Part shown: positions 18,319 to 60,640 of the stretch, in pieces
Layout: every line of letters begins with the position of its first letter
Position numbering within the stretch: the stretch's first letter is position 1
From: Escherichia coli
GTDB lineage: Bacteria; Pseudomonadota; Gammaproteobacteria; Enterobacterales; Enterobacteriaceae
Assembly (NCBI RefSeq): GCF_024502345.1
Contig: NZ_JALDNN010000001.1
Reading direction: 5' to 3' (one strand)
Length of the DNA stretch: 64,000 nt
Translations under genes and position numbers: made by a program
The notes under the pieces: model-generated
What the model saw: the letters and a program-made list of their open reading frames with translations, nothing else
Told to the model about the DNA's origin: nothing
Databases searched by the model: none

Positions 18319-18362
18319 CTGTTTATTCATACAGTTAAAAATAACACTGTATACAAACACAG
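18319..18362. promoter_or_regulatory. Two tandem LexA (SOS) boxes, CTGT-N8-ACAG, around a TTGACA -35
   Basis: CTGTTTATTCATACAG (18319..18334) and CTGTATACAAACACAG (18347..18362), directly upstream of the dinI-like ATG. Confidence 0.75.
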
Positions 18363-18377
18363 TGTAGAGGGATTTTT

Positions 18378-18626: not shown

Positions 18627-19052
18627 TTAACACGTAAAATCGGTAACGGCTGGAAATCATTCAATACTCGCACTATCGGAAGTTCACCAGCCAACCGCAG
18701 CACGTTCTTGCATACGACGTGTCTGCGGTTTTTCAACCATTCAGATACAGCACTCTCATCACATTCATTCTTCCGCATTAAAGTATATATGACCATATCA
18801 CCTTAATATTTTTCTTCTTCAGATAAAAATTGTTATCTATGTATACTTTTAAACCGAATCCGTGTAGAGTCTCTACCTAAGTTAGTTCGCAGCTACCCCT
18901 TCAGTTTGCGCCATTAACCTCCTGACTTTTGCCGCTATCTGTAAGCATTCCTGTATACCTGAAACTACAGGGTTCATCTACGAACTTTAAGAACACCCAG
19001 GATAAAAATTGTCAACTATATTATATATAACACCATACTAATTCGAGGCTAT

Positions 19053-19165
19053 ATGAACAGCATACTGATAATCACTTCACTACTTATCATATTCAGCATT
19101 TTTGGTCATGCTCTAATAAAATTAGGGATTGGCATATCCAATAACCCGGACAAAACCGATGTATA
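19053..19165 (+). CDS. Small hydrophobic ORF (~37 aa, [37 protein letters not shown])
   Basis: ATG with weak GAGG RBS; one predicted TM helix; too short for the ORF track. Confidence 0.25.
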
Positions 19166-19201
19166 AGTCAACATATCCTGAATCAGACATACAATATTGC
19201 A

Positions 19202-19468
19202 ATGAAAACCAATAATATTTTAAGGAATATCTTCATGAAATCAAAAGACACCCTAAAGTGGTTCCCTGCGCAGCTTCCTGAAGTCAGAATTATCCTGGGA
19301 GATGCTGTCGTGGAAGTAGCAAAACAGGGAAGACCTATCAATACCAGAACATTGCTTGATTACATTGAAGGAAACATAAAGAAAAAGTCATGGCTGGATA
19401 ACAAAGAATTATTACAAACAGCGATATCAGTTCTTAAAGACAACCAAAATTTAAATGGTAAAGTGTAA
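19202..19468 (+). CDS. ydfK: YdfK/YnaE-like prophage cold-shock protein
   Basis: ...MKSKDTLKWFPAQLPEVRIILGDAVVEVAKQGRPINTRTLLDYIEGNIKK... matches remembered YdfK/YnaE; the true start may be the internal MKSKDT. Confidence 0.7.
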   Translation: MKTNNILRNIFMKSKDTLKWFPAQLPEVRIILGDAVVEVAKQGRPINTRTLLDYIEGNIKKKSWLDNKELLQTAISVLKDNQNLNGKV

Positions 19469-19847
19469 TACCTCCCCTGAAAAATAATTTTTCAATGCAT
19501 TAAAAAAATATCAACAACTACGTTATTCCGCAACAACCTACTTTTTTTACCATTTTTCCACTTTAACAACATTTTGCTCCACTTTTCCACGACCAAACAA
19601 CTTAAAATCTGGTTAAAATAACATACAACACTATTATTCGTCTTCCTCGAGTCCGCCCGGAGTTCGAAAAACAAACCGAGTTAAAGCCATTTTTCAAAAA
19701 ATCGATTTTTGGTTACACCAAAATTACGGGACTGCATCCGAATTCGTTTATTTTCGAACGTATACATACAAATATGTACAATAATAAGCGAAATAATTTT
19801 TGGATATGCATTATGATATGTACACCAATTTCGTATAGAGTCTCACT

Positions 19848-20438
19848 ATGTCTCGAATTTTTGCTTACTGTCGGATATCAACGCTGGATCAGACCCCCGA
19901 AAATCAACGCCGGGAAATCGAAAGTGCAGGTTTTAAAATCAAACCTCAGCAAATAATCGAAGAACACATTAGCGGCTCAGCAGCAACCAGTGAGCGTCCT
20001 GGTTTTAACCGGTTGCTTGCTCGCCTGAAATGTGGTGATCAATTGATTGTGACAAAACTGGATCGCCTTGGTTGTAATGCAATGGATATCAGGAAAACAG
20101 TGGAACAACTGACCGAAACAGGTATCAGAGTGCATTGCTTAGCATTGGGGGGCATTGACCTGACCAGTCCAACAGGAAAAATGATGATGCAAGTAATTTC
20201 AGCAGTCGCTGAATTTGAACGAGACCTTTTACTTGAACGCACTCATTCCGGGATAGTAAGAGCCCGGGGCGCAGGGAAACGTTTTGGTCGACCACCTGTG
20301 TTAAATGAAGAACAGAAACAGGTGGTATTCGAACGAATTAAGTCAGGTGTAAGTATAAGTGCCATTGCCCGGGAATTCAAAACCTCGCGGCAAACCATTT
20401 TAAGAGCCAAAGCAAAACTTCAGACACCTGACATATAA
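19848..20438 (+). CDS. pin: Serine recombinase, DNA invertase (Pin/Gin/Hin family)
   Basis: [28 protein letters not shown]... resolvase catalytic domain plus C-terminal HTH. Confidence 0.9.
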
Positions 20439-20535
20439 AAAATAATCTCGGTGTGAGATGCTTTACGTCTTCCAAGCCCCCTTCCTTGCCGTAAATGGAA
20501 AGATACATCTAATTATAGAATTTATATGTTTTACC

Positions 20536-21117
20536 CTACGGCAGTGCTGGCCATTCAATATCCTGTGCAGTTGACGTATCAACACGGTTCAGCAATACCC
20601 GATACTTTTTCCATGCTTCCAGCAACGAGATTTCTTCCTCCGTTGCAATTTCCAGATCTGCAGCATCCTGAAGCGGCGCAATATGCTCACTGGCTACCTG
20701 CATCAGGTTGTTTTTTGTTTCTTCCGCCTCCCGGATCCGGAACAGTTTTTCTGCTTCCGTATCCTTCACCCAGGCTGTGCCGTTCCACTTCTGAAACTCC
20801 CCTTCCGGGGATAACCAAGTGACATTTTCCGGTAATGGGCCAAGTTCAGAAATAAATAACGCGTCGCCGGAAGCCACGTCATAGACGGTTTTACCCCGAT
20901 GGTCTTCAACGAGATGCCACGATGCCTCATCACTGTTGAAAACAGCCACAAAGCCAGCCGGAATATCTGGCGGTGCAATATCGGTACTGTTTGCTGGCAG
21001 ACCTGTATGAGGTGGAATATATGCATCACCTTCACCAATAAATTCATTAGTTCCGGCCAGCAGATTATAAATTGTTATGGTCCGTGGTTGTTCACTCATT
21101 CTGAAATCCATGTTCAC
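20536..21117 (-). CDS. tfa: Tail fibre assembly protein (Tfa)
   Basis: 193-aa ORF with Tfa-like sequence, immediately downstream of the tail-fibre-like ORF. Confidence 0.8.
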
Positions 21118-21119
21118 CT

Positions 21120-22022
21120 CTACTTAATATCAGAGACAGAATATTGTTTATTGAACGTATGGGTGTGAGCACCAATAACGATGCTACTTCCGTGGCTATG
21201 TGCGCCAGAGATGACATTACCTACGGGATTTTCTGGATTAATCCGGTGTATATGCGAACCAGGGCGAAACCGGTTATTAGCCTGATGTTGTATCAGTACA
21301 TCATCAGCCTGATGTTCAGGGTTAATACAGACCTGCCCGGAACGTGAGCAATACGTCCGATAATCGCCGCATCCAATATATTTAGTATCCGCATAACGGC
21401 AAACAGAATTACCCGGACAGTATGCATATGTGCCAAATACTGCCGACTGGCGGGATTGTGCGTATTCCCAGTTAATTGATTCTGTTTTTTTATTAAAGTT
21501 ATCCCATGCCTGCTTCATCTGCCGGGCAACACTTTCAAACGGCACCTGACCACATCCGGCTCCCATTGCAGGGAATACCACCGTTTTTATTTTCCTGTCT
21601 GTCGTTGCGTGTTTATTGTGCTGAAAGATGGCAAGCAGAGCGGCCCAGGTTGCGTTATATACAGCGTCTGTTCCGTCAATTGTCAGCGGAACACGCATTG
21701 TTGGCGCATGTACCAGCCAGGGATGATGATTATGCCCCGTTTCAATAACAAATGCAGAACCTACAGGCTGCTCGCCGAGATATTCACGAAGAATATGATT
21801 CTGAACGCGGGACTGTAACTGAGTACCGAAGAATGCGGTAATGGCGGCATCAACACCGCCATCCATCAGGCCGAAACTGTTTGCCGCACTTACCATGCAG
21901 TCAAATTCCCTGATTGTTTCAAATGGCTTTCCGACAATATTCACATTATCTGCATTTGCGAATACCCGCTTAAATGCTTCAGCCATTTCTGTTACTGGTG
22001 CAGAAAGAATGAGCGTAATCAT
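21120..22022 (-). CDS. Macro-domain-like protein with a Cys-rich, HxH-repeat C-terminus
   Basis: Motifs [30 protein letters not shown]...[21 protein letters not shown] resemble the macro (ADP-ribose binding) fold; C-terminus GAHSHG...GAHTHT resembles tail-fibre HxH repeats. Confidence 0.55.
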
Positions 22023-22170
22023 GCAAGCCTCACAATATAGTTAAATGCGATGTTTTTGACGGTGTTTTCCGCGTTACCAGCAGCGTTAACGGTGATGGTG
22101 TGTCCATGTGACCCTATCGCAACGGAGTGCGTATGAGCACCAATACCGACAGTATGCGCGTGTGCACCTG
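22019..22170 (-). pseudogene. C-terminal fragment of side tail fibre (Stf) protein
   Basis: ...[51 protein letters not shown]; canonical Stf C-terminal end; N-terminal part missing. Confidence 0.7.
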
Positions 22171-22204
22171 CAGATACTGCTGTAAAAACGCATGAAATGT
22201 GCCG

Positions 22205-22892
22205 ACTCGTTAGCGGCTTTTTCGATCTGGCAGGAGCCTTTGATTTTAGGCGTCGAGCCGCGAATGGATTTTGGCCATACAGAGCCCTCAATACGTTTAT
22301 CCCCCAGCAGGGTTGGCGAACCCTCTTTTTCAACATCCGGTTCGAACGAGGAAAGTTCGTCATAGCAGACCACATCCACGGATTTTTCACGGTAGTTTTT
22401 GGCGGCAGCGCCGCCCAGGCACCATAAACCGACGCCCGATGAAAAGCGTTTCAGCGTGAGGGTATTATCACGATGTTTACGACCCAGCCATGGGGAAAGG
22501 TCTTTCAGGCATGGCACGTCCCTAATCGTCGTCTCCACGTGAGACTTCATAAAATCTTCAGCGGCAGAATCCGTGGGCTGAAAAAGCAGACTGTTTCGGG
22601 ATTTATGCTCAATAAAATACCCGACCACCCCCAGCAACATCTTTGTATAGCCAACACGGGCAGATTTAATCAGATTAACTGTGCGGATCTGATCATTCCC
22701 CATACTGTTCATGATGGCGATCTGGAACGGCAGCGTTTTCCATTCGCCGTCACCGTATGAGGATTCTTTCGGCAGATAATAATACTGATCAGCCCATTCA
22801 ACTGCCGTCATCGGTACAACCCTGACCAGAGGCTGCAGCGCAACCGAAACGGCAGCCATCAGATTATTCAGTTGTTGCTCTGATATATTCAT
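22205..22892 (-). pseudogene. Terminase large subunit (lambda gpA-like), N-terminal fragment only
   Basis: MNISEQQLNNLMAAV...TAVEWADQYYYLPKESSYGDGEWKTLPFQ...[34 protein letters not shown] aligns with lambda A residues ~1-250, then the frame degenerates into the stf fragment. Confidence 0.8.
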
Positions 22893-23367
22893 CCAGCAAA
22901 TCCGGTAATTTATCCCCTGCCCGCGCACACTGATTTGCGCCCTTCGCAATAAGGGTTTTCAGATGGTCAAGATGACGTGGCGTTAAATCCGGGAACTGTC
23001 GCTGCATGGATAACGGAATAGAATCAAGCGTACTGGACAATGCCATCGCCAGCTTGCTGAGGGCGAAAACGCAGAAGTCTGAATCGATGAGCTTACCTTC
23101 GGTTACCTGATTTTTAAGTTTTTGAGCTACGGCCTGTTCTTCTGTCAGTTCAGCTCTGGCCCGAAGCAGCCTTTCCTCCAGATCGCCCCCGTCATCAGGT
23201 GTTCTATGATTGTGTTGTCGCCGCTCGCGATCTATCTCCAGTACAGTTTTAACGTCATAAAAAACTTCCCTCCCCCGACGCTCGACAGGAGGAACGCCCC
23301 ATTTATCAAATGCCTGAACAGAGATACCGATGGAGGAGGCCATATCACTTTTATTCAATAAAAAGGC
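22864..23367 (-). CDS. Terminase small subunit (lambda Nu1-like, NohA/NohQ-type)
   Basis: MAFLLNKSDMASSIGISVQAFDKWG...LPLSMQRQFPDL...LDEYI resembles Nu1. Confidence 0.8.
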   Translation of the reverse strand, partial: AFLLNKSDMASSIGISVQAFDKWGVPPVERRGREVFYDVKTVLEIDRERRQHNHRTPDDGGDLEERLLRARAELTEEQAVAQKLKNQVTEGKLIDSDFCVFALSKLAMALSSTLDSIPLSMQRQFPDLTPRHLDHLKTLIAKGANQCARAGDKLPDLLDEYIRATTE

Positions 23368-23797
23368 CATCTCCTCTCCATAAGTCATCGATAAAAAGCG
23401 ATACAACAACCATGTGTTTTTACAAAACCATTTGATATCATTTAATTTTTTCACATTAATGACATCAAAGCACATCGTAAGGTTGTTGTATTTATTTTAT
23501 TTTCACCTTACTTATCAATTAGATATACCAAACAATTAAACAACAACCACCCCCTCAAAAAATCTCATAAATAGCGAAAAACCGCGAGGTCGCCGCCCCG
23601 TAACCTGTCGGATCGCCGGAAAGGACCCACAAAATGATAATAATTATCATCTACATATCACAACGTGCGTGTACGCCATCAAACCACGTCAAATAATCAA
23701 TTATGACGCAGGTATCGTATTAATTGATCCGCATCAACTTAACGTAAAAACAACTTCAGACAATACAAATCAGCGACACAGAATACGGGACAACCTC

Positions 23798-23989
23798 ATG
23801 TCAACGAAGAACAGAACCCGCAGAACAACAACCCGCAACATCCGCTTTCCTAACCAAATGATTGAACAAATTAACATCGCTCTTGATCAAAAAGGGTCCG
23901 GGAATTTCTCAGCCTGGGTCATTGAAGCCTGCCGTCGGAGACTAACGTCAGAAAAGAGAGCATCTACATCAATCAAAAGTGATGAATAA
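23798..23989 (+). CDS. YlcI/YnfO-family small prophage protein (DUF3950-like)
   Basis: MSTKNRTRRTTTRNIRFPNQMIEQINIALDQKGSGNFSAWVIEACRRRL; divergent from Nu1 as in DLP12/Qin. Confidence 0.65.
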   Translation: MSTKNRTRRTTTRNIRFPNQMIEQINIALDQKGSGNFSAWVIEACRRRLTSEKRASTSIKSDE

Positions 23990-24242
23990 TGAATATCCCG
24001 GTTTCTTTACCTCCCCTCCCACCCCGCACAGGACTGGCGAACGTGTGGGACAAATATGTGAGTCATAAACGCCTTATCTTCAGAAATGCAGTTGGCATCC
24101 GAACAGGACGATATTGTAACTTCACCTAATTACGAGGCATTGCAGTAGTTGAATTGTAGTTCTGTATTAGCCTGACAGTGACAGAATGCGATATTGACTC
24201 TGTCACAGGTGAAATAGTTTGAATGGTTAGCAGTTATGGCGA

Positions 24243-24449
24243 TCAGTCAACCACCAGGGAATAATCCTTCGAATTCTTATCGTGCTTCACCAACGCTGCC
24301 TCAATTGCCCTGAATGCTTCCAGAGACACTTGATGTTCTATACATGCAATTACAACATCCGGATAACTCATAGAAATGGTGCTAGTGAGCATAGTTTTTA
24401 CACGGACCTGATCCAAGGATGAGTCATCAGTGTATTGATCTTTATGCAT
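24243..24449 (-). CDS. Hypothetical prophage protein
   Basis: 68-aa ORF in the position of ydfO-like genes; no motif recognised. Confidence 0.3.
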
Positions 24450-24744
24450 TTTGTCGCTCCATGCGTTTGCTCTTCACTTGCGGCTAAAAATATAACGTCA
24501 AATCACTCAGCATGAAAGTGTGAAAGTTTCAGCGCGTTTCCCTTACATAATCTGTCGTTTGTATTCTCTCCAGGCATACCGGAAAGACTAGGTATTGTCA
24601 CACAACCAATACCACCGACTATCGAGATTTATATCTATTCGGTAATGTTTAAATATAAAAAAACCCCGTAAAAACGAGGTTTATGGGTAAATTGTATTGT
24701 TGAATAGCATCTGATAAGAAATTGATGCTAATACTATAAACACA

Positions 24745-24918
24745 CTAGATTAAATCAATCTTGATATCATAGCTTTCAAGACCAGTCATTTTTTCCCGTG
24801 CAGTAAACTGGATACTGGTAACTTCTTTCCCGGTCTTTTTCTTAAGCTCAATAATTTTTTTTGTTATATATTCAGAAATATCTGCTTCTGTTTTTGTTTT
24901 TAACTCTTCAATGTTCAT
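24745..24918 (-). CDS. gnsB: GnsA/GnsB-family protein
   Basis: MNIEELKTKTEADISEYITKKIIELKKKTGKEVTSIQFTAREKMTGLESYDIKI resembles GnsB. Confidence 0.75.
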   Translation of the reverse strand: MNIEELKTKTEADISEYITKKIIELKKKTGKEVTSIQFTAREKMTGLESYDIKIDLI

Positions 24919-25090
24919 CATTTCCTCTTTTAGTCTGTTATGACTTTCCTGGTACACAGTAGTGTCAATTATATGGAGCAAACGTATAAAAGATAAGATG
25001 AAACATCGCAATAATCAACATACGACAGTCTAAATTTCGCACAAACAGATAAAGATGATTATCCTTTATTATCAAGGCATTAGAATGAAA

Positions 25091-25360
25091 TCAATTCAAG
25101 AGTCTCATTGCTGCTTCCAGAATTTCTTCTGAAGTTACATGTCGATCCGCTGCTACATAAATGACTTTATGATCTCCGGTCAGAGATGGAAACCCTGCAG
25201 CCATTACAGTGAGATGTGTTGTTTCGCCATTTGGATATTCACGCATGATGGTGTTAACTCCGGTCATCACTGGCACTACCATTGCTGGTTCAGAGTTAAA
25301 AAAAACTATTATTTTTTTCATGATGTTACCGTAATATGTGAGTATCCATCGACTAGACAC
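25091..25360 (-). CDS. Hypothetical prophage protein (ynfN position)
   Basis: ORF between the gnsB-like and csp-like genes; identity uncertain. Confidence 0.35.
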   Translation of the reverse strand: MSSRWILTYYGNIMKKIIVFFNSEPAMVVPVMTGVNTIMREYPNGETTHLTVMAAGFPSLTGDHKVIYVAADRHVTSEEILEAAMRLLN

Positions 25361-25592
25361 TAAGCAAAAAAGCTCCCGAAGGAGCCTTCATTTTCACTTT
25401 CTTAAATCTAACGACAGACGGCTAACATTTAAGTATTGTGAAATATTATCAAATGTAATCATCATTGATTTACAAAAGATACATTTTGCCCCGAAAGGAT
25501 TCCTGTCAGAAACATCAAAAGATGATGTTCTATACTGAGAACCATGGCAACACGGGCATCTAAAGTGAATATGGTTTGTAATATTTTCTACC

Positions 25593-25805
25593 TCAAAGTG
25601 CCACTACATGAACAGCCGCGGGGCCTTTAGGTCCGTTCTCAATACCAAATTCGACTTGCTGATTCTCAGTTAACGTTTTGAAATCGTTGCTCTGAATAGC
25701 TGAGAAATGGACAAACACATCTTTGCTACCATCTTTCGGCGTGATGAAACCAAAACCTTTTTCAGGGTTAAACCATTTCACTAAACCAGTCATTTTGTTA
25801 GACAT
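25593..25805 (-). CDS. cspI: Cold-shock protein (CspA family), prophage copy
   Basis: [38 protein letters not shown]... RNP1/RNP2 motifs; the paralog name is a guess from Qin gene order. Confidence 0.8.
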
Positions 25806-26174
25806 CATTATTACCTTTTGAAGAAGTGAGCCCTTGGGCAGAATGGTCCGAAAAAAAATATCAGAGAGAAAAACCAACAAGGAAATCTCAAGAGGTACAA
25901 ATAATAAAATTATAACAATGACTGCTTCAGATAATTTTGTAACAAACCAGAACACCATTAACGCATGATTAACCAACCATAGCAAGGATTACTTTTGTAA
26001 AGAAAAACACACGAATGAAACAATAGCTTTATTTATTAATAAAACGTGTCATTCTGTCTAATGACCTTTTATCTTACCCTTAAGATTTCAAGGATTTTGA
26101 CTCATGGAAGAGTCCTTTTTATTTAAATTTCACATTCAGCGCTAAAAATAATCCGATTTAATGTTAATCTACAT

Positions 26175-27196
<1,022 letters not shown>

Positions 27197-27301
27197 GGAT
27201 ATTTATCAGGATTTATCGGTTTCTGAACCCTGGATATGTTTATCTGTCCCGGCCTGTTGAATCAGGCGGGGAAAAGGTAAAGACAATCAAGAGGATTATT
27301 T

Positions 27302-27574
27302 ATGGACAATAACACCATTTCTCTACAGGAGTTGCTCGACTGCATTTCAAAGCTTCGGGATGATGTAAATGCCCTCACTGTTGCATTTTCATATTTGGCC
27401 TTATCAATTCCCAGAGAACAAATGCAACCAACACTGGCATCGCTCCTGCTTGAATCACGCAACCCCAAATGGTCCCAGGAACAACAAAATTCTTTCAAGT
27501 GGCTGGCGGCATTACTGGAAGAAAAATATGCTGGTAAAATTACCATTTCGGTGGAGTCTTCAGAGAATCAGTAA
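27302..27574 (+). CDS. Hypothetical 90-aa protein on the strand opposite to the lysis cassette
   Basis: ORF fills the gap between endolysin and ydfR-like gene; hydrophilic, helical-looking; no homolog recalled. Confidence 0.25.
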   Translation: MDNNTISLQELLDCISKLRDDVNALTVAFSYLALSIPREQMQPTLASLLLESRNPKWSQEQQNSFKWLAALLEEKYAGKITISVESSENQ

Positions 27575-27884
27575 TTCTTCCTGGTAGCTTTCCTTTGTAG
27601 GTTATCCACACATTCTGCGCCTCTAAAATTACGGGGCGCTTTTCCGGCGACTGCTCATCCCCTTCACATAACCCGGCTGCAACTTCCAGGAAGACCTGTC
27701 TGATGCTCCTTCTGGCTGCTGCCTCATAAAACTCCAGCGCGGCACCTTCAACACGGTCCAGCGAGATGTCCAGGTCAAAAATTTCACCGTCAAAGCGTTT
27801 TTTGTCCCTTAATGCTACAGTTACCGCAACTTTATTCTCAAAATTGCGGATCCCTTTCACAATCAGTTCATAGTTTTGTGTCAT
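27540..27884 (-). CDS. YdfR-like prophage protein (DUF1327)
   Basis: Sits between holin and endolysin as ydfR does in Qin. Confidence 0.6.
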   Translation of the reverse strand: MTQNYELIVKGIRNFENKVAVTVALRDKKRFDGEIFDLDISLDRVEGAALEFYEAAARRSIRQVFLEVAAGLCEGDEQSPEKRPVILEAQNVWITYKGKLPGRITDSLKTPPKW

Positions 27885-27888
27885 TGAA

Positions 27889-28104
27889 TTACTCTCCCCG
27901 TGCAACCTTACGCTTGTCTTCTTTAATCTTGAAATAAAGGTTTGTCAGGTACGTCAGCAAGCCAAATACCAGACTACCCAGCACACCGATTGCAGCCCAC
28001 TGTGACGGAGTTACTTTATCGAGTAACTGCAATGCCCAGAAACCAGCATTACCAGCCGATGTGCCATAGGCGATACCTGTTGTTAACTTATCCATTGATT
28101 TCAT
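27889..28104 (-). CDS. Holin (phage 21 S / EssQ-like)
   Basis: 71 aa with TM segments WALQLL...[15 protein letters not shown] and a charged C-terminus. Confidence 0.8.
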
Positions 28105-28322
28105 ATCCTCACCCCGATGTACACAGATGGTGCAATATGTTTGAAAAGATCGGAGTCTATGGGGTAGTTTTTATAGCAAACGTTGTTCTCAACGGCGCTA
28201 AAAAACAGACACATTAAAAATGTGGGTAATTATTTTAAAAGAAAATCATATATTAAATAATAATACGAGATATGTTTTCATATTTAGTGTACTGTATACG
28301 GCCATTTATACAGGAAAAGCCT

Positions 28323-28493
28323 ATGTCAGAACGTAAAGACTCAAAATCACGCCGTAATTATCTCGTTAAATGTTCCTGCCCAAACTGCACCCAAGAGTCA
28401 GAACACAGTTTTTCAAGAGTACAAAAAGGTGCCCTTTTGATCTGCCCTCATTGCAACAAAGTATTCCAGACAAATCTTAAAGCTGTAGCTTGA
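28323..28493 (+). CDS. Small zinc-ribbon protein (CxxC...CxxC)
   Basis: MSERKDSKSRRNYLVKCSCPNCTQESEHSFSRVQKGALLICPHCNKVF; AGGAAA RBS. Confidence 0.4.
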   Translation: MSERKDSKSRRNYLVKCSCPNCTQESEHSFSRVQKGALLICPHCNKVFQTNLKAVA

Positions 28494-28552
28494 TTGATTT
28501 TATTCGTAACAAGTATTTTTTATATTTTAATAACATATTTAAAGCAGATAAT

Positions 28553-28577
28553 AAAAAACCCGCCTGAGCGGGTTTAA
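28553..28577. terminator. Hairpin ACCCGC-CTGA-GCGGGT with flanking A/T runs
   Basis: Perfect 6-bp stem with T-run on the minus strand. Confidence 0.5.
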
Positions 28578-28856
28578 TATTGTGGTACTTTTTGTGGGAG
28601 TCATCCACTTACGCACTTTGTTTTGCTATGCCAGCAGTTAGCTTCTGCTGTAAAACTATTCATGCAGCAAACCTGCACTTCACCACAATGGTTAGCATAC
28701 TTTTCCTGATTAAGTTATTGCCAAATATGCTGGCCATTGTTTCATGTATTGGACCTCCTTACTCTTTATTAAAGAGATCCAATATTCACCACTCTGTCTG
28801 TATCTCCACTCAGGCATCAGCCTTCTTCGTTATCGTATACAGACAAACTATGAATT

Positions 28857-29072
28857 TTAATCAGTAATTATGACATTTGCTGCTGCAGGACCTTTAGCAC
28901 CACTCTCTACAGAGAAGGTAACCTTTTGACCTTCAAATAAGATTCGATAATTATCATTCTGAATCGCAGAAAAATGCACAAACACATCTTTACTACCATC
29001 AACAGGAGAAATAAAGCCAAAACCTTTATCAGCGTTAAACCATTTTACTAAACCAGTCATTTTATTTGACAT
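28857..29072 (-). CDS. cspB: Cold-shock protein (CspB-like)
   Basis: [38 protein letters not shown]... Confidence 0.85.
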
Positions 29073-29372
29073 TCTACATTCCTTAACTTGAGCCTTTCGG
29101 CATAAATGGCTTGTATAACAGAAACGACTTCGTACTTAATTGGAGAGACTCAAAGAAGGAATAAGTGAATAACACCTGAAATGAGAACTGCTTTAGTAAA
29201 CTACTTCGTATATCGTCTGTTCTTCAAACCGACGCAATCATTAACGCATAGTTGAACATATGAAGCAATGTTTATTTTAGACATCCAGCCATCTTCAACC
29301 CCATCAAAAAACTATAGCTTTCTTCAGGAACGTGTGTATAGTGCGCCAAGTTATCAGTATTAAGGAATTTTT

Positions 29373-29585
29373 TTGTCCCGTAAAATGACAGGAATTCTCA
29401 AAACCTTTGACGGCAAAAGCGGCAAAGGTCTTATAACCCCATCCGATGGTCGTATCGATGTCCAGCTTCATGTTTCAGCGCTCAATCTCCGCGATGCAGA
29501 AGAAATTACCACCGGATTACGCGTGGAATTTTGCCGGATAAATGGTCTGCGTGGACCATCAGCTGCCAATGTTTACCTTTCATGA
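29373..29585 (+). CDS. cspF: Cold-shock-like protein (CspF/CspH-like)
   Basis: [39 protein letters not shown]... Confidence 0.8.
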
Positions 29586-29880
29586 GCTATATTAAAGCTT
29601 TAACTTCAAGCCCCATCGAATCAAACATGGAGAGTTTTCATGAATAAACCCGTCTGTCTTGATGACTGGTTGATTGGCTTTAAAAGCTTATGCTGTACTT
29701 TGACCTTAATAGCTCTGCTAATAATGTAATAAGCAGACTCATTGTATCTATGGACATTGTACTGGAAGAAAACATTTTAAACATCAGGCAAAAAACAAAG
29801 TCACCCGATAAATAATAAGTAAACTAACATGAATCCCGTAATGAGATTCAACATCTCTATTACCCTATTTAAAGCACAAA

Positions 29881-29905
29881 AACCCGCTCATCAGCGGGTT
29901 TTCTA
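29881..29905. terminator. Candidate late-operon terminator (tR'-like) downstream of Q
   Basis: CCCGCT-CATC-AGCGGG stem with T-runs on both strands, ~110 bp past the Q stop. Confidence 0.5.
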
Positions 29906-30007
29906 CTTTTTCTTAACTTCGGGTATACAAAGCCCATCGTTGAAAAAATTTTATCCATATTTTTTGAAAAATGCAAGCATCACGTCGCCATCTTCGGCGA
30001 AAATCAC

Positions 30008-30760
30008 TTATCTCGTCACCTTTCTCAATTGTGCTTCAGCGTAAGATTCCTCCTGCCAGCACTTTGTAACCAGTTTATCAATGACATTTGCATATCCTTT
30101 ATACCACTGATAATCACTCAGGTCCGGTACCAGCTTCTGGACATGATGCCGCGCCAGTGTGGTTGGTAAACGACTAAACCGTTTTCCATTGCAACGCCCA
30201 CAAATCTTATAAACAGGTGTGCCATGAAGCCGGGTCCTTTTTTCATCCAAGACAATACCTTTACCCTTACACCCTCTGCACGCTGTGCTGACTTCTCCCT
30301 TACCATGGCAATGCTGACATAGTTCCTTCACCCACTCTTCTTTGATAACAGATTCCCCGCTTCTGGAGTGTTTCACCACTTCGCGCAATACATTATGAAA
30401 TCCAGTACCAGCACAATGCTCACAACGAGCCTTACTTGCCGCAGACCTGGAATAATCAGCAAAGGCAAAATTCACAAGGTAAGGAATAATCTGTAGCCGG
30501 GTTTCTTCACTCAATTTATTCAATGTCGGGTTATCCAGTGCCATCGCGTAATTGAGCAGACCTTCAATCGCAAACTGAGGATCCTGAACACCAACTTTTG
30601 CCAGGAATAAGGCAAACCCAAGCGGTGCTTTCGACTGCACCATCCCCTGCGCAGCCATCACATCCGTAATCGTTAAACCACCAGAGCCTGTCGCCGGTGC
30701 GTCATCACTCAATTTTGGAGATTTTGGGGAGTAATATTTTGGTAAGGCTTCAAGGTTCAT
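30008..30760 (-). CDS. Late-gene antiterminator Q (QuuQ/phage 82 Q-like)
   Basis: 250 aa with Cys clusters CEHCAGTG, CQHCHGKG, CRGCKGKG, CGRCNG. Confidence 0.8.
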   Translation of the reverse strand: MNLEALPKYYSPKSPKLSDDAPATGSGGLTITDVMAAQGMVQSKAPLGFALFLAKVGVQDPQFAIEGLLNYAMALDNPTLNKLSEETRLQIIPYLVNFAFADYSRSAASKARCEHCAGTGFHNVLREVVKHSRSGESVIKEEWVKELCQHCHGKGEVSTACRGCKGKGIVLDEKRTRLHGTPVYKICGRCNGKRFSRLPTTLARHHVQKLVPDLSDYQWYKGYANVIDKLVTKCWQEESYAEAQLRKVTR

Positions 30761-30820
30761 GCTCGTTCTCCACTTACGCCAGTACGCCTATTGCCAGCGC
30801 ACGATCGATAAAACGAAATA

Positions 30821-31171
30821 TCAGCTCCAGCTGGGAGCCATACTTCTCTTCAAATGCCACGGTAAACGCTGGTTAATATCGGCATTGTCCACATCCTCGA
30901 CGTCAGGAAGAGACACAAAGACGCCATTTGCAGACTGCGCCACAGCGTCAGCAATGAAGTGAGTGCCACCAGCACGTTGTAAAATCATTGCCCATCCCAG
31001 CGGGAAAATCTGATCGCCATCGGCACGAAGGCGGTTAAATAATGCGTTCTCTGTTACATCCAGCCACTCAGCAGCTTCAGCGTACCCCACCGGCAACGCC
31101 GCGATAGTTTTTCTGACAGCTTTCACGTACCACTCAGGCTGTTTTTCCACTTTCCAGTGATGATTACCCAC
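30821..31171 (-). CDS. Phage regulatory protein, CII-like; possibly truncated
   Basis: 116-aa ORF overlapping the Cro-like gene stop and ending 60 bp before Q; no replication genes in between. Confidence 0.4.
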   Translation of the reverse strand: MGNHHWKVEKQPEWYVKAVRKTIAALPVGYAEAAEWLDVTENALFNRLRADGDQIFPLGWAMILQRAGGTHFIADAVAQSANGVFVSLPDVEDVDNADINQRLPWHLKRSMAPSWS

Positions 31172-31424
31172 GGCTTACCTCCTGTTCCTGTGGTTTAAAC
31201 CCATTCTGGTTTTGGCTAGATTGAAAACGTGCCGGATAAAGAATCTGCATTTCGCTGATTTCACCCTTAAAAAAATTGGCCAGACGTTCTGCAAGATCGA
31301 TAGATGGAATTTGTTCCAGTCTTTCAATACGACTCAGCGTCGCTGGATTGACCTGAACGCCAGCAGCAACATGCTGCAAAGTAAATCCGTGCGCCTTACG
31401 CACATTCCGTAATGGTGATTGCAT
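31164..31424 (-). CDS. Cro/antirepressor-like HTH protein
   Basis: HTH GFTLQHVAAGVQVNPATLSRIE; divergent from the cI-like repressor. Confidence 0.6.
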   Translation of the reverse strand: MQSPLRNVRKAHGFTLQHVAAGVQVNPATLSRIERLEQIPSIDLAERLANFFKGEISEMQILYPARFQSSQNQNGFKPQEQEVSRG

Positions 31425-31521
31425 ATGACCTCCACATATTGCGTGATGAGCATATTATTTCACGCAAATATTTTGCGCAAGTTGATTTGCTTAACGCGCA
31501 ATAAAGAAATGTAATAAACGC

Positions 31522-32214
31522 ATGAACATAGGAAACCGAGTCAGACAACTTCGCCAAGCGAAGAACATGAAAATCGCCGATCTCGCTGAAGCAATAGGAG
31601 TGGATGCGGCGAATATCTCACGCCTGGAAACAGGTAAGCAGAAACAATTCACTGAACAAGCCCTGAGTAATATTGCCAGGAGCTTAGGTGTTGATATTGC
31701 TGATCTCTTTACCTCAGACTTCAAAAGTAATACTGTATGTAAAAACAGTGTTAGTGAGGATGTTGCGCAGGTGAAGGATGTATTCCGTATTGAAATGCTG
31801 GATGTCAGTGCCAGTGCGGGAAATGGCCTTATCCAGGGCGGTGATGTCATTGATGTGATTCATGCCATTGAATACAGAACTGATAATGCTGTATCGATGT
31901 TTGGCGGACGGCCAGCCAATCACATTAAAGTTATCAACGTTCGTGGGGACAGTATGTGTCCAACCATTGAGCCAGGAGATCTCATCTTCGTTGATGTCAG
32001 TATCAATCAGTTTGATGGAGATGGTATCTATGTATTTGGTTTTGATGATAAAATTTATGTCAAACGACTGCAAATGATACCTGACAAACTACTGGTGATT
32101 TCTGATAACCAGATTTACCGTGAATGGGGAATTACCAGCGAAAATGAACACCGGTTTATGGTCTTTGGAAAGGTCTTAATCAGCCAGTCACAAACCCTTA
32201 AGCGACACAATTAA
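31522..32214 (+). CDS. CI-like repressor (HTH plus S24 LexA-type peptidase domain)
   Basis: N-terminal HTH IADLAEAIGVDAANISRLE; C-terminal GDSMCPTIEPGDLIFVD...VKRL Ser/Lys dyad. Confidence 0.85.
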   Translation: MNIGNRVRQLRQAKNMKIADLAEAIGVDAANISRLETGKQKQFTEQALSNIARSLGVDIADLFTSDFKSNTVCKNSVSEDVAQVKDVFRIEMLDVSASAGNGLIQGGDVIDVIHAIEYRTDNAVSMFGGRPANHIKVINVRGDSMCPTIEPGDLIFVDVSINQFDGDGIYVFGFDDKIYVKRLQMIPDKLLVISDNQIYREWGITSENEHRFMVFGKVLISQSQTLKRHN

Positions 32215-32234
32215 CCCTTACCTCCTCATCAATT

Positions 32235-32256
32235 AGCCACCCAAAGGTGGCTTTTC
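32235..32256 (+). terminator. Rho-independent terminator after cI
   Basis: AGCCACC-CAAA-GGTGGCT stem followed by TTTT. Confidence 0.65.
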
Positions 32257-32649
32257 ATTACCCTTTAAATTGCATATCTCGCAACAAAAACACTTGCATA
32301 ATGCGCAACTTCATTTTATCTTTCTTTCCAGACAAACAAACAAGGTACTAACAAAATTTGGTTGTAACACGGCGTATGGCACATGCGTCGTTAGCGGTCT
32401 GGGGACGTTAAAGGGGACAATCCACTCCTTGCTCGGGCAAACAAACCAGGTAGCCGGAATGTGCAAGTCAATGATGATGCTGATAAGACGCCTAACCAGC
32501 GTGGCGATTCGGTTTGACGCCTGGGAAGAGACCAGGGTGCAACGATGAGGGCATTTATGGAGCCGCGACAAAGTGTGGTGCCGTAACTGGCTAAGTGCTC
32601 TCAGCGTTGTGGTAATCCGCGAAATGGCGCGGCGGTAAGTATGGCGGGG

Positions 32650-33255
32650 TTACTCTTTCCCCGTTGAGGACACCGGATTGTCAGGTTGACCATACGCCTG
32701 AGTGACAACAACCAGACGATTCAGGGCAGTATCATCCGCCTTTTCCGGTAACAGCCCATGCAGGTATACAAGTCCATCCCAGCGGCTGTTTTTTGGAATT
32801 GGCAGCATCGGCGCTACATAGGCCTGAAAAGCCTGGCCTGTACGTTTAGCTGCCACATGAAAGAGACGGTCAAAGTTGGTAGTGACCAATCGAAGGGCAC
32901 CCTCGCGGCTACGGGCTAAACGTAACAGCGCCGCCTGAGTATCAATAGCGCCCCTACGACGGAACTTTGGCTTAAGGGCTTTTTCCAACGCGCGTCGGAC
33001 GGCTATACGCTGCCCTGGTAAGCGCCGTTCCAGCAAATCTAATGTGCCGTCAAATTGCCCACGCTCGAAAACCTCACGCTCAATTTCTGAAAGTGTTGTT
33101 CCGTTCCTCTGGTAAATTAGTTCTACCAACCCTTTGAAACCAGGTAAACCAGCAGGGTAGGAAATGCCTGCTCCACAGAAGAACACAACGCGCCCTTCCT
33201 CGTGCGCCTGCAAAAGCTCATCAGGAATATCAGGGCCGTTGGTAATGAATTGCAT
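32650..33255 (-). CDS. SIR2-like domain protein (short, 201 aa)
   Basis: VVFFCGAGISYPAGLPGFKGL (Rossmann GAG), VTTNFDRLF, LVYLHGLL match SIR2_2-type motifs as I recall them. Confidence 0.55.
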   Translation of the reverse strand: MQFITNGPDIPDELLQAHEEGRVVFFCGAGISYPAGLPGFKGLVELIYQRNGTTLSEIEREVFERGQFDGTLDLLERRLPGQRIAVRRALEKALKPKFRRRGAIDTQAALLRLARSREGALRLVTTNFDRLFHVAAKRTGQAFQAYVAPMLPIPKNSRWDGLVYLHGLLPEKADDTALNRLVVVTQAYGQPDNPVSSTGKE

Positions 33256-33437
33256 TCCTTTTCCTCCTATCCAATGTGCACGTTCATTCGAGTAAATGAA
33301 GGCAAGGGGTTACATCTTATTATACCGACCGTGCAAATCCGGCTTCCTAGCAAGCTACTTTACTTGCCAACTCATAATGTCCGAACTCCGAACAAAGCGG
33401 ACTGCTAGATTTGATTGCGTTCTAGCTACGCAAAATA

Positions 33438-34661
33438 TCATTTCGAGCCTAAACGAGTACAAGTAACAATCGATTCAACTCTCTCCCACCATGCCTGGTA
33501 GGCTTTACGCTGTTCTTCTAGATAATCACTCTTGTCATAAACTTGCCATACACCTGGCAGTTTATGACCGAGCATTATTTCAGCAATATGAGGCGCAGTA
33601 AGATCAGAAAAGTTTGTTCGTGCTGTTCGTCTCAAATCATGAAGAGACCAATGAGGAAATTGATACCCCAAACGCCGCCATGCGTACTGCATTAAATTGT
33701 AAGGCAGCGACTGCAATGATGTCCGACCAACTGGTTCCCTGCTTCCTTCCTTAGTAAAAAGCATATCGGAACCGTTGTTCATAGAGATAACGTATTTTAT
33801 AAGCTCTTCAACCGGTTCAATAATGGGCCGCTTTAGCGGTTCGCCTGTTATATCCCCTGTCTTATGTCGTTCTGGTGGTACAGTCCATATTTTATTAATG
33901 AAATCAAAATCGTCCACCTTGGCAGTAATTAGCTCTGAACTACGGCAACCAAAATGCAGCAATAGTTTAATGAAGGCCCGGTATTTAGGAACCATTCGAG
34001 AACCATCGATCGCAGCATAAAGGATTTTAATTTCATCATGTGTCAGAAACCGTTTCTTCTGACCTTTACGGATATCCATATCTTTACCCGTGATATCCGA
34101 CAGCGGGCGAGTTTCAATGAGCTTTCTCTTATACGCCCAGACATGGGCCTGCTTTGCGTTAATTAGCAATCGGTCTGCTATTGCTGGAGTCTTAGTGCTA
34201 AGAGGCTCCAGGACTTCTAACCAATCATGCAATGTAGCTGCATCGTGAGGGATATTCCCGATTTTAGAGAACAGGTGCAGCTCAAACGAGCGGAGTATCT
34301 GTTCAGAACCTTTTTTATTTTTTACACAATATGCTTCATACCAAGCACGGATCACAGATTCTACCGTCATGGCTTCAGTAGCTTTACGTTTTTCTGCCAG
34401 CTTGACCAATCGTGGATTGCGGTTTGACTCGAGTTCACCACGAAGACGGATAACTTCTTCTCTGGCCTCTTTTAGTCCAGTTGCCGGGTAAGTTCCGATA
34501 TCAAGACGCTCACCTTTCCCCGCCCACTGATAACGATATTGGAACACTACGCGACCTTTCGGTGATACTCTAACAGACAGACCATCACGATCGGATTTAA
34601 CCAAAACCTTATCACGTTCCTTTCCAAGGACTGAACGCAACCACGCATCAGACAGCGCCAT
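33438..34661 (-). CDS. int: Tyrosine integrase, P4-type
   Basis: 407 aa; N-terminal DUF4102-like arm-binding region (MALSDAWLRSVLGK...GLSVRVSPKGRVVFQYRYQ), C-terminal catalytic region with HDLRRT...LGHK. Confidence 0.9.
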   Translation of the reverse strand: MALSDAWLRSVLGKERDKVLVKSDRDGLSVRVSPKGRVVFQYRYQWAGKGERLDIGTYPATGLKEAREEVIRLRGELESNRNPRLVKLAEKRKATEAMTVESVIRAWYEAYCVKNKKGSEQILRSFELHLFSKIGNIPHDAATLHDWLEVLEPLSTKTPAIADRLLINAKQAHVWAYKRKLIETRPLSDITGKDMDIRKGQKKRFLTHDEIKILYAAIDGSRMVPKYRAFIKLLLHFGCRSSELITAKVDDFDFINKIWTVPPERHKTGDITGEPLKRPIIEPVEELIKYVISMNNGSDMLFTKEGSREPVGRTSLQSLPYNLMQYAWRRLGYQFPHWSLHDLRRTARTNFSDLTAPHIAEIMLGHKLPGVWQVYDKSDYLEEQRKAYQAWWERVESIVTCTRLGSK

Positions 34662-34669
34662 TACTCACC

Positions 34670-34729
34670 TTGTACAAATAACAAAAAACCTCTGCTGTTT
34701 TGTACATTATGTACAAGCACATGTACAGA
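34670..34729. promoter_or_regulatory. Cluster of four (A/T)TGTACA(A/G) repeats beside int, candidate arm-type sites
   Basis: TTGTACAAA, TTGTACATT, ATGTACAAG, ATGTACAGA within 60 bp of the int start. Confidence 0.45.
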
Positions 34730-35046: not shown

Positions 35047-35724
35047 TCAGTGTTTACACAGGAGCTGCTCCAGTTCGTGCAACGAAGAAACGGTCCAGGT
35101 GGGTGCGATGCCTTCTGGTTGCTCGCGATGGTGCGCATTCAGCCAGCAGGTCGCAAGCCCGGCGTTGATGCCACCGAGAATATCGGACTCGGCAGTGTCG
35201 CCAACCATCAGCACGCGTGAACGGTCAGGATTGCCCGCCTGTTCCAGCGCATAATCGAAAATTTTCTTATTCGGTTTGGCAACGCCAACTTCTTCGGAAA
35301 TCACCAGCAAATCGAAGTAATCACGCAGGCCCGTGCGTTCCAGACGCACTTGCTGCAAGGCGCTAAAGCCGTTGGTGATGATGCCGATTTTGGCGTTGCC
35401 ACAAATGGCGTTAAGCAGAGAAACCGCGCCCGGCAGCGGCGTACAGATTTCCGCCATCGCATTAATAAAGGCTTCGTTGAGTTTACCTGGCTCGACGTTC
35501 AGCCGTTCGGCCCAGCTCTCAAACCGCCCGTGCTGAAGCTGTAATGAAGTGATCGCGCCGTTTTGATAATCCACCCACAGTGGCTTGTTAACGGCCTGAT
35601 AGTCCTGAAAATCTTCAGCGGTAAAGGTGACGCTGTAATCAAGAAACATCCGCTGCAGGCCGGTGAATGAGTCAAAGGTAAACAGCGTTTCATCGGCATC
35701 AAAGAAAATCCAGTCCCACTTCAT
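35047..35724 (-). CDS. yjjG: HAD-family pyrimidine 5'-nucleotidase YjjG
   Basis: 225 aa [15 protein letters not shown]... HAD motif I. Confidence 0.9.
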
Positions 35725-52234: not shown

Positions 52235-52282
52235 ACTCCCTATGCCCGATAACATTTTGCTTATCGGGCATTTTTATGGCGA

Positions 52283-53947
52283 TTAAAACGTTTCCCAGTT
52301 CTCCCCGCTATCTGCCACTGCCATTTTACGCGGCGTAGCTGGCGTCACGGTTTTTACCACAGCCGATGTTTCACGCTGCTGTTGCTGCTGTTGCTGAATC
52401 CGGAACACTGCCACAGCTTCGGTCAGGCGACTGGCCTGCTCTTCCAGCGCGGCGGCGGCAGCGGCAGACTCTTCCACCAGCGCGGCGTTCTGTTGAGTTA
52501 CCCGGTCCATCTCAGCAACCGCTAAGCCAACCTGATCGATACCACGGCTCTGCTCATCAGAAGCAGAAGCTATTTCGCCCATAATGTCCGTCACGCGGGT
52601 CACGGCGCTGACAATCTCCGCCATTGTTTCCCCGGCGCTTTCGACCAGCGTAGAGCCAACATCCACTTTCCCCACCGAGTCTTCAATCAGGCTTTTAATT
52701 TCACGAGCCGCCTGGGCGCTACGCTGGGCCAGATTACGCACTTCTCCCGCAACCACCGCAAAACCACGTCCTTGCTCACCCGCACGCGCAGCCTCAACCG
52801 CCGCGTTCAAAGCCAGAATATTGGTCTGGAAGGCAATGCCGTCAATTACGCTGATAATATCGGCGATTTTCTGCGAACTAGTGGAGATATCGCGCATAGT
52901 CTGCACCACGTTATCCACCACTTTGCCGCCGCGTTGCGCCGTTTCAGAAGCACTTAACGCCAGGTGGCTGGCCTGGCGCGCATTCTCGGCGTTCTGTTTC
53001 ACCGTTGCGGTCAGTTGCTCCATGCTGGCTGCCGTCTCTTCCAGCGAAGCGGCCTGTTGCTCGGTGCGCGAAGAGAGATCGTTATTACCGGTAGCGATTT
53101 CGCTGGCACCGCTATAGATGGCATTGGCCCCGTTGCGCACATCACCGACGGTACGCATCAGTTCTCCCTGCATATGGCGCAAACTCTCTGCCAGTTGCCC
53201 CATCTCATTAGAGCCATCCACCTCAATCGGTTTCACCAGATCGCCGCCTGCAATATGACGGATGCTGTCAATCAGGCGATTCATTGGCGCTACCAGCGAG
53301 GCTTTAATACCGAACCAGACGGCGAAGATGACCGCCAGTACGACGATCATCACGCCCACCAGAATCCACATCGCCTGGCTGTAGGAGGCATTGTTATCGC
53401 TGACGGCGATATCATAGAGCCGATCGTTTTGCTCCATGTAAGCCACATACTGCTTCTCGAAACCGTCTTGATATCCCTGGGTCGGCTGATCAAAGAACTC
53501 GTTGATTTTGCCTGCACCTAACAGTTGGATCAGCTCCGCCAGCGCATTGTGATAAATATCGTAATTACGTTTGCTCTCTGCCGCTGCGGCGGTGCTCTGA
53601 CGCGGGTCACGCGGCAACGCTTCGTAATCCACCCAGTTTTTTTCCGCCTGTTTCAACGAAATACTGGCACTCTGCATCAGCTCAGCAACGGTTGAACCGC
53701 TACCAATATTATTCTGATCCATCATGTAGCGGATACCCGCGCGGTTGAGGGTGTTACGCGTCTGCAACAACGCGACCCAGCTGCCATTCAGCGTGGATTG
53801 CTGCTGGCGAATGGTTTGTAAAACAGTGAAATTTTCTTTGTCATTCTTTAAGGCATTAAAGAACAGACCGCCTGATGTCAGTTGTAAAAGGCCAAAAACG
53901 GCCAAAACCAGCAGTAAGCTGGTCACGATCTTGATACGTTTTAACAT
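52283..53947 (-). CDS. tsr: Serine chemoreceptor Tsr (methyl-accepting chemotaxis protein I)
   Basis: 554 aa [19 protein letters not shown]...; HAMP and MCP signalling domains, C-terminal NWETF pentapeptide. Confidence 0.93.
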
Positions 53948-60499: not shown

Positions 60500-60640
60500 T
60501 GCGTTGCGCTTATCCGGCCTACACGCGCACCAAATCGTAGGCCTGATAAGGCGTTACGCCGCATCCGGCAAAAAGCCGTACCAAATCGCGGACCGGATAA
60601 GGCGTTTACGCCGCATCCGCCATAAACCTTGTCGTACCCT
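60500..60640. repeat. BIME/REP elements
   Basis: Three GCCGGATAAGGCG/GCATCCGGC-type units. Confidence 0.6.

Follow-up and report, generated by a model that had tools for sequence, protein, structure and literature searches.

The serine chemoreceptor gene tsr of the E. coli genome studied here carries, near the 3′ end of its reading frame, a run of glutamine codons that a preliminary description of the sequence had taken to be longer than that of strain K-12. The question raised by this locus is how such a difference in length arises between strains of the same species, and what it does to the receptor. In the window, the whole stretch of 64,000 nucleotides that was analyzed, tsr (serine chemoreceptor, or methyl-accepting chemotaxis protein I) occupies positions 52283 to 53947 on the minus strand according to the open reading frame listing, NCBIfam, Pfam and the RefSeq annotation, and encodes 554 amino acids followed by a stop codon. 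The protein scored 1220 bits with the NCBIfam equivalog PRK15041 (cutoff 947), the alignment covering positions 1 to 554 of the 554-position profile, and only 748 with the model of Tar, under the cutoff of 900 for that receptor. Pfam assigned the domains PF02203 (TarH, residues 1–176), PF00672 (HAMP, 217–263) and PF00015 (MCPsignal, 327–484) in this order, and the C-terminal end reads DSGENWETF, with the NWETF pentapeptide present. The gene in the window is thus a full member of Tsr, and the same region is annotated as tsr in 5,382 of the 5,426 complete RefSeq genomes of E. coli.

K-12 has this gene in the same neighborhood, with the convergent lgoT downstream, and its protein (551 amino acids; PDB 6s1k) shares the domains and the NWETF end. 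The two proteins are 99% identical, and on the strength of this identity the receptor encoded in the window would be expected to sense serine and to signal to CheA. Apart from the glutamine run, the comparison returned "five substitutions" relative to K-12: V106, S125, Q92 (E in K-12), Y178 (H in K-12) and, within the tail, T538/G548.

The glutamine run extends from Q518 to Q524 (52376–52396, minus strand), as established from the sequence, Tandem Repeats Finder, a codon listing and a homopolymer scan. The interval 52370–52400 first proposed for it correctly brackets these codons. Read on the coding strand, this tract of seven codons spells CAG CAA CAG CAG CAA CAG CAG, preceded by ATT (I517, 52397–52399, minus strand) and followed by CGT GAA ACA TCG (RETS). 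This is not a simple triplet run; the tract is composed of two copies of the 9-bp unit CAGCAACAG followed by CAG, i.e., 2.33 copies of the unit. The first copy (CAG CAA CAG, Q518–Q520) lies at 52388–52396, the second (CAG CAA CAG, Q521–Q523) at 52379–52387, and the partial third copy (CAG, Q524) at 52376–52378, all read from the sequence on the minus strand. Tandem Repeats Finder likewise reported a perfect period of 9 bp with 2.4 copies and 100% matches between 52375 and 52396. The repeating unit is therefore 9 bp long, or three codons rather than one, which refines the earlier reading. Within the seven-glutamine tract, a 12-bp direct repeat occurs at an offset of 9 bp and, owing to the CAA interruptions, the longest pure CAG stretch is two codons.

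Taken by itself, the array has nothing unusual: the 64-kb window contains four short-period arrays with a Tandem Repeats Finder score of at least 40, of which it is one. At the protein level, Q7 is the longest homopolymer run among the open frames of at least 150 amino acids in the window, and the only other run of five or more residues, A6, is found in the same gene. A role of the opposite strand at the tract was considered and rejected because this strand offers a single open frame of 72 amino acids (52366–52584), nested entirely within tsr, and because no Rfam match was obtained in the region.

We then compared the tract with that of K-12. The K-12 protein (WP_000919536.1, 551 amino acids) has QQQQ, encoded by CAG CAA CAG CAG, three residues or exactly 9 nucleotides fewer than the window, and a K-12 MG1655 record matched a query carrying four glutamines without any gap. 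The window allele hence differs from K-12 Tsr by one additional 9-bp unit (seven glutamines against four, 554 amino acids against 551), and the run is indeed longer than in K-12, as the preliminary description had it. The aligner placed the gap over the nine bases of the first copy and the next two, its position inside the repeat being arbitrary.

Other strains extend the series in the opposite direction. Strain AF16 is one unit above the window, with 10 glutamines and 557 amino acids, and a protein of 560 amino acids (WP_000919582.1) with 13 glutamines is encoded in three genomes, in which the tract was checked on the sequence. The RefSeq proteins of 551, 554, 557 and 560 amino acids are distinct accessions that reflect the polymorphism, and the alleles with 4, 7, 10 and 13 glutamines correspond to 1.33, 2.33, 3.33 and 4.33 units. 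All 23 alleles that were sequenced conform to CAG CAA CAG [CAG CAA CAG]n CAG or to an impure form of seven codons. Alignment of these 23 tsr alleles, the comparison by which the polymorphism was to be checked, showed that the repeat number differs among strains and, together with the array found by Tandem Repeats Finder, confirmed the short tandem-repeat polymorphism that had been suspected.

The frequency of each allele was estimated by BLAST among the 5,382 complete genomes carrying tsr. The counts were deduced from identity bands, not from a reading of each tract, and were cross-checked with four queries. Seven codons were found in about 4,055 to 4,056 genomes (75%), four glutamines in about 1,210 to 1,251 (23%), 10 glutamines in 72 (1.3%) and 13 glutamines in three (0.06%); these percentages differ from population frequencies, the collection being non-random, with laboratory derivatives of K-12 and outbreak clones over-represented. 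The class with four glutamines is swollen by the laboratory K-12 derivatives, yet most of its members among the matches listed are natural isolates. With a 150-nt query carrying 10 glutamines and flanks of 60 nt, the bands contained 72 genomes (10 glutamines), 4,059 genomes (seven-codon length, including the three with 13 glutamines) and 1,251 genomes (four glutamines plus a few divergent alleles). The query with seven glutamines gave 4,059 genomes at 95% identity or more, and the query with 13 glutamines gave 72 in the 10-glutamine band, 4,055 in the seven-glutamine band and 3 with 13 glutamines. The query with four glutamines set a lower bound of about 1,211 for its own class, and the four-glutamine band may include about 40 genomes with divergent seven-codon alleles. 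In the searches with 4 and 13 glutamines, some alleles were matched as two adjoining segments, which made their identity deceptively high, and ranges are given for this reason. A 10-glutamine query with flanks of 39 nt was unfit for counting, since partial local alignments of four-glutamine alleles with 100% identity polluted its top band. Among the matches listed in these allele searches, no length off the 9-nt series was seen; all steps were multiples of 9 nt. The seven glutamines of the window are therefore the majority allele of the species and the four glutamines of K-12 a minority form.

Altogether, about 1,326 of the 5,382 genomes (about 25%) have a tsr array of another length than the window. 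As a control, we used an array of 2.7 copies of a 9-bp unit in deoA (8292–8315), for which a 9-nt insertion or deletion is possible in at most 4 of 5,424 genomes. Because the deoA array is nearly invariant in length, it is the polymorphism, and not the sequence pattern, that singles out the tsr array.

Which of these lengths came first was approached through the relatives of the E. coli gene. A divergent clade of E. coli tsr alleles (B2C, BS-01; diverged by about 3.5%) has seven codons forming an impure repeat, translated as QQEQQRQ and QQVQQRQ; the codons of QQEQQRQ are CAG CAA GAG CAG CAA CGC CAG. Outside E. coli, the corresponding segment reads FRI-QQEQQRA-RE in Salmonella arizonae, QQQQQRA in S. 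enterica and QQEQMKA in Enterobacter, and QQEQKRQ in another tail; these sequences were read from C-terminal fragments of up to 143 amino acids, found with an 82-residue tail as the protein query, few of them bearing an organism name. In addition, the 554 positions of the NCBIfam Tsr profile match the length with seven residues. Because the alleles of Salmonella, Enterobacter and divergent Escherichia all have an impure segment of seven residues, the comparison identifies seven as the ancestral length and the four glutamines of K-12 as the product of a derived 9-bp deletion. By the same comparison, the pure glutamine run, and hence the perfect DNA repeat, is a trait of E. coli proper.

The distribution of the repeat number over the species was then examined on a tree of the 23 tsr alleles, built with the glutamine run masked (1,644 nt left). 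Repeat number was scattered on this tree, with a Fitch minimum of 12 changes and a root state of seven. Several close pairs differed in their repeats: IHE3034 (four glutamines) and AR_0006 (seven) showed 2 differences over the 1,644 masked sites, PapRG (10 glutamines) was 10 sites off an O157:H7 allele (seven), and CT01 (four) and HS (10) were mutual nearest neighbors among the 23 alleles. Moreover, identical flanks of 60 nt on each side were found around different copy numbers, namely 10 and 13, 7 and 10 (twice), and 4 and 10. Downstream of the run, at a distance of 6 nt, IHE3034 also carries an REA variant, which is common to the seven-glutamine alleles of AR_0006 and BEN5202 and was present in no other four-glutamine allele sampled from the main clade. 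Finally, the two downstream contexts of tsr, lgoT and the TRAP-transporter genes, each host all three main alleles. Recurrent slippage is suggested because the repeat number is scattered over haplotypes and because identical flanks accompany differing copy numbers.

These data fit the following scheme. In E. coli proper, a seven-residue segment resembling QQEQQRA, located after the last conserved helix residue, would have become a perfect 9-bp duplication, (CAGCAACAG)2 + CAG. The 12-bp homology at the 9-bp offset would then permit slipped-strand mispairing at replication, or unequal exchange, to drop or add whole 9-bp units. Such gains and losses would yield the alleles of 4, 7, 10 and 13 glutamines, and the CAA interruptions, which leave at most two pure CAG codons, would account for the absence of 3-bp steps. 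Each unit step alters the tail between I517 and NWETF by three residues. Slippage as the mutational mechanism is deduced here from the allele pattern. Re-expansion from four glutamines is predicted to be much rarer than deletion to four, because the deletion leaves only 3 bp of repeat homology. We consider it very probable that tsr contains an in-frame VNTR, in which an ancestral segment of seven residues has turned into a perfect 9-bp repeat whose copy number is recurrently changed by slippage, with small effect.

The scatter on the gene tree might also be produced mainly by homologous recombination, which would shuffle a few old alleles between backgrounds without new slippage. Recombination is frequent in E. 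coli, and the tsr gene tree is mosaic: ATCC 25922, which has lgoT downstream, clusters with tsr alleles from the non-TRAP context, and the gene content downstream, lgoT or TRAP genes, varies by lineage. However, flanks that are identical over 60 to 129 nt on each side between alleles of unequal repeat number are hard to reconcile with import, and IHE3034 retains its REA variant, so that an imported segment would have to end only a few bases away from the repeat. Recombination thus seems an unlikely main cause of the scatter; the comparisons indicate that recurrent gain and loss of units in place best explains the close pairs, and that recombination surely also moves tsr alleles. The length difference could in principle be an artefact of sequencing or assembly in a tract of low complexity, given that some technologies are error-prone on short repeats. 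Against this, thousands of independent complete genomes repeat the same discrete alleles, in frame and in multiples of 9 nt; replicate assemblies were concordant (four times for HS, three times for strain 8178), and solved structures also have the four-glutamine form of K-12 (6s1k, 551 amino acids). The probability of an artefact is practically negligible.

The recurrently changing repeat of tsr resembles the in-frame coding VNTRs or simple-sequence repeats of the MLVA kind, in that its units are perfect and joined head to tail, strains differ by entire units between conserved flanks, and the changes are homoplasic. It differs from them by its very low copy number (1.3–4.3), and its instability is presumably low. 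No MLVA scheme naming a tsr locus, and no description of a VNTR or polyglutamine polymorphism in tsr, was found in the open-access literature. A phase-variable contingency locus was considered and rejected. The unit is 9 bp long and all 23 alleles stay in frame through to NWETF; the array, located within the reading frame and at a distance from the promoter, has only 1.3 to 4.3 copies, and replicate assemblies agree. A further parallel is offered by the CAA-interrupted polyglutamine tracts of eukaryotic genes. The tsr tract shares with them the mixture of CAG and CAA and the interruptions that split the pure run, a resemblance only: it is bacterial, far shorter, without any hint of large expansions (maximum seen, 13 glutamines), and changes by 9-bp steps instead of triplets.

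The position of the run in the protein was defined by aligning 35 Tsr-like tails. Conservation is near-complete up to VFRI, ending with I517, and is followed by free divergence until NWETF, whose W, E and F never vary and whose N and T hardly do. In agreement with this, work from the Parkinson laboratory on K-12 Tsr placed the end of conservation at residue 517 and counted a C-terminus of 34 residues beyond it (PMC4692393); I517 therefore closes the conserved part of the kinase-control domain and is the point from which the tail departs. After the run comes the rest of the non-conserved linker, R525 to E549 (52301–52375, minus strand, from the translation), the sequence of which varies among relatives with its length kept, and then the NWETF pentapeptide (52286–52300, minus strand, from the translation and the 35-tail alignment), whose function has been described (PMC4692393, PMC7390727). 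The location in a non-conserved C-terminal tail ending with NWETF, as originally proposed, is thus borne out by the alignment and by the boundary at residue 517 (PMC4692393).

Since conservation stops at I517 and the run begins with the very next residue, the number of glutamines determines how long the tail tethering CheR and CheB is. With 4, 7, 10 and 13 glutamines, I517 is followed by 34, 37, 40 and 43 residues, respectively. In 33 Tsr-like relatives, the median length of this tail is 37 residues, and 22 of the 33 have 36 or 37. The tail of the window (37) falls on the mode of the family, and that of K-12 (34) is below 31 of the 33 relatives. The tail of Tsr has the general build of the CheR/CheB tether of the high-abundance receptors (Tar and Tsr with NWETF), with a non-conserved segment of about 30 to 35 residues from the last conserved helix residue to the pentapeptide. 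This C-terminal tether, made of the linker of Tar and Tsr plus NWETF, was reportedly studied by Li and Hazelbauer in 2006 and by Bartelli and Hazelbauer in 2011.

The structure of the tail was modeled with AlphaFold2 on an isolated fragment of Tsr (residues 442–554), as a monomer and with a 35-sequence alignment, the HAMP domain and the partner helices being left out. In this isolated fragment, the helix runs through the glutamine tract to about residue 533, although helices tend to be overestimated under such conditions. The mean pLDDT for the same isolated tail fragment is 94 for residues 512–521 and 74 for residues 522–531, with values of less than 50 beginning at about residue 533. The glutamine run may thus be a fraying helical extension rather than random coil. 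The run opens the tail, 25 residues upstream of NWETF, and according to this model would lie at the transition from helix to disorder rather than midway along a flexible chain, which refines the preliminary description.

Two other readings of the variation were considered. The run might extend the C-terminal methylation helix, so that each unit, worth about 0.8 turn, would change the length of the helix and the angle at which the tail leaves it, or would affect a contact mediated by polyglutamine, rather than simply the length of a chain. The helix predicted up to about residue 533 is consistent with this, as are the strong helix formers of which the ancestral segment QQEQ[QM][KR]A-RE is built and the 1QU7 crystal construct, which reaches residue 520. 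On the other hand, the model is that of a monomeric fragment deprived of HAMP and of partner helices, a setting prone to over-predicted helices, and no sequence conservation is seen past residue 517. Reportedly, EPR measurements by Bartelli and Hazelbauer in 2011 classed the tail of Tar as unstructured. The constructs of the Parkinson laboratory and the 8c5v structure end the functional domain at 516/517. We consider an effect exerted through the helix rather unlikely. The other reading is adaptive tuning, by which tail length would be under selection, the 9-bp repeat would shift the reach of CheR and CheB and the kinetics of serine adaptation in steps of three residues, and the polymorphism would be maintained or repeatedly selected. 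It draws on the constancy of tail length among the 33 Tsr-like relatives (median 37; 36–37 in 22) despite free divergence of the sequence, on the dominance of the seven-codon allele although deletion should be mechanistically easier than re-expansion, and on the measurable shift of CheR reach with tether length in Tar (PMC10561060). The predicted shift is only about 0.4 nm per three residues, when the methylation sites lie about 1 nm apart, which speaks against this reading. No association with host or habitat was evident among the matches listed, all alleles coming from humans, livestock and the environment. Furthermore, K-12, with its four glutamines, performs efficient serine taxis. We regard adaptive tuning as quite improbable, and a near-neutral in-frame polymorphism as most likely.

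The estimate of the shift derives from engineered receptors. Tethers of 22, 29, 34 and 46 residues in Tar shifted the distribution of CheR by 0.128 ± 0.048 nm per residue, and the methylation sites are spaced by about 1 nm (PMC10561060). From this figure for Tar, a change of three residues is predicted to produce a shift of about 0.4 nm. In Tar and in single-chain Tsr constructs, it is the length of the tether that matters, rather than its sequence (PMC4692393, PMC10561060). The phenotypic effect of the length alleles of Tsr is probably small; at most, the reach of CheR and CheB along the methylation helices would change modestly. The published tether-length variants were engineered, whereas those of tsr are natural, are generated by the repeat and affect only the start of the tail. 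A more far-reaching proposal would be that the tail is under stabilizing selection at about 36 to 38 residues in Enterobacteriaceae and that the E. coli repeat acts as a heritable stepwise tether (34, 37, 40 or 43 residues) altering CheR/CheB reach and the kinetics of serine adaptation. We hold this proposal to be improbable; if it were true, the K-12 allele, on which nearly all quantitative models of chemotaxis are based, would be that of an atypically short-tethered receptor.

As it stands, the tsr tract is a fresh example of a well-known type of variation, and its practical use lies mainly with modelers who rely on adaptation parameters from K-12. For them, caution is warranted in that the reference K-12 Tsr (551 amino acids, four glutamines) is atypical: about three quarters of the genomes, the NCBIfam profile and the relatives from other genera are three residues longer. 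The natural series of 4, 7, 10 and 13 glutamines also constitutes a ready-made set of tether lengths for the tethered-enzyme model in Tsr. The flexible chain has been given as 30 residues in Tsr and 34 in Tar, and the difference was read as mechanistically meaningful (PMC10561060). The value of 30 residues, however, is that of the minority K-12 allele. With the common allele, this gap between the two receptors is nearly gone, the chains being 33 and 34 residues long instead of 30 and 34.

A Tsr protein with 13 consecutive glutamines was found in three genomes (NZ_CP027103, NZ_CP028761 and NZ_CP148363, carrying the tsr alleles L020-L022), whose hosts were a dog, a sheep and a human. The protein is identical in the three (WP_000919582.1, 560 aa). 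At the DNA level, strain A13 has a tsr sequence that departs from both of the remaining 13-glutamine alleles at 9 of the 1,644 sites retained once the glutamine run is masked, and its closest allele is that of strain LF82, which encodes ten glutamines. These differences, together with the proximity to LF82, raise the possibility that the 13-glutamine allele arose more than once, or that it was transferred.

Other alleles depart from the common pattern in the run itself or next to it. The alleles of strains B2C (L003) and BS-01 (L018) form a divergent tsr clade, separated from all other alleles by 49-67 differences per 1,644 nt, and their seven-codon segment is impure, reading either QQEQQRQ or QQVQQRQ. 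The seven-glutamine allele of AR_0006 (L019) carries a leucine in place of the nearly invariant R516, directly before the run, as a result of a CGG to CTG change. In the periplasmic ligand-binding domain, the Tsr of the window has V106 and S125 (window 53575-53632, minus strand), and the three alleles aligned with it have A106 and I125.

A second homopolymeric stretch, of six alanines, occupies residues 495-500 of Tsr (window 52448-52465, minus strand) between methylation-site glutamates, and lies over a period-6 array detected by TRF (GCGGCA, 3.2 copies, 52449-52467). Several of the database fragments resembling the Tsr C terminus (P0001, P0002, P0007 and P0057) are shorter here by one or two alanines; no length variant of this alanine run appeared among the rows listed from complete genomes. 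The shortened fragments could be errors or broken genes.

Downstream of tsr, the 48-bp gap that separates it from the convergent lgoT contains a hairpin of 11 pairs followed by a T-run (window 52242-52271), which is probably a bidirectional terminator common to the two genes. Not all strains have lgoT at this place: in a subset including LF82 and IHE3034 (alleles L002, L004, L006, L011, L014-L016 and L019-L022), a TRAP-transporter large permease is found downstream of tsr instead of lgoT, showing that gene content varies at the junction.

When 5,426 complete E. coli genomes were searched with the 24 kb of window 40000-64000, the top match was just 98.3% identical, unlike the tsr tail, for which exact matches exist. 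Either the source lineage has no close representative in the collection or the region is a mosaic. Part of the same stretch matches plasmids at 1,367 places, which suggests that an insertion sequence or some other mobile element lies within it. Repeated DNA is present in the window as a whole: two Rfam matches to the REP-derived naRNA4 lie on the minus strand (24-102 and 13137-13215), and two long-period tandem arrays (101 bp, 1.8 copies, 13110-13294; 51 bp, 2.3 copies, 60512-60628) look like REP/BIME elements.

A degraded lambdoid prophage remnant occupies window 18300-34700, with prfC (16572-18185, minus strand) on one side and yjjG (35047-35724, minus strand) on the other, two genes that are neighbors in K-12. 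Genes for an integrase-like protein (33438-34661), a CI-like S24 repressor (31522-32214) and a Q antiterminator (30008-30760) are present, followed at lower coordinates by those for lysozyme with a DUF2514 protein (26175-27196) and for Nu1 with a truncated gpA terminase (22086-23475). The remnant also codes for a Macro-domain protein (21120-22022), a protein of tail-fibre assembly (20536-21117) and a Hin-like invertase (19848-20438). Adjoining the integrase, an ORF of 201 aa (32650-33255, minus strand) matches the SIR2_2 domain in part (Pfam E = 1.6e-6; no more than positions 3-63 of the 141 in the profile), and may be a truncated defence-type gene. Finally, the minus strand of the remnant gave two Rfam matches to the cspA thermoregulator (112 and 153 bits; 25566-25963 and 28794-29233) and one to the IS009 sRNA (221 bits; 20570-20768), which implies that the prophage carries putative cold-shock-protein genes.
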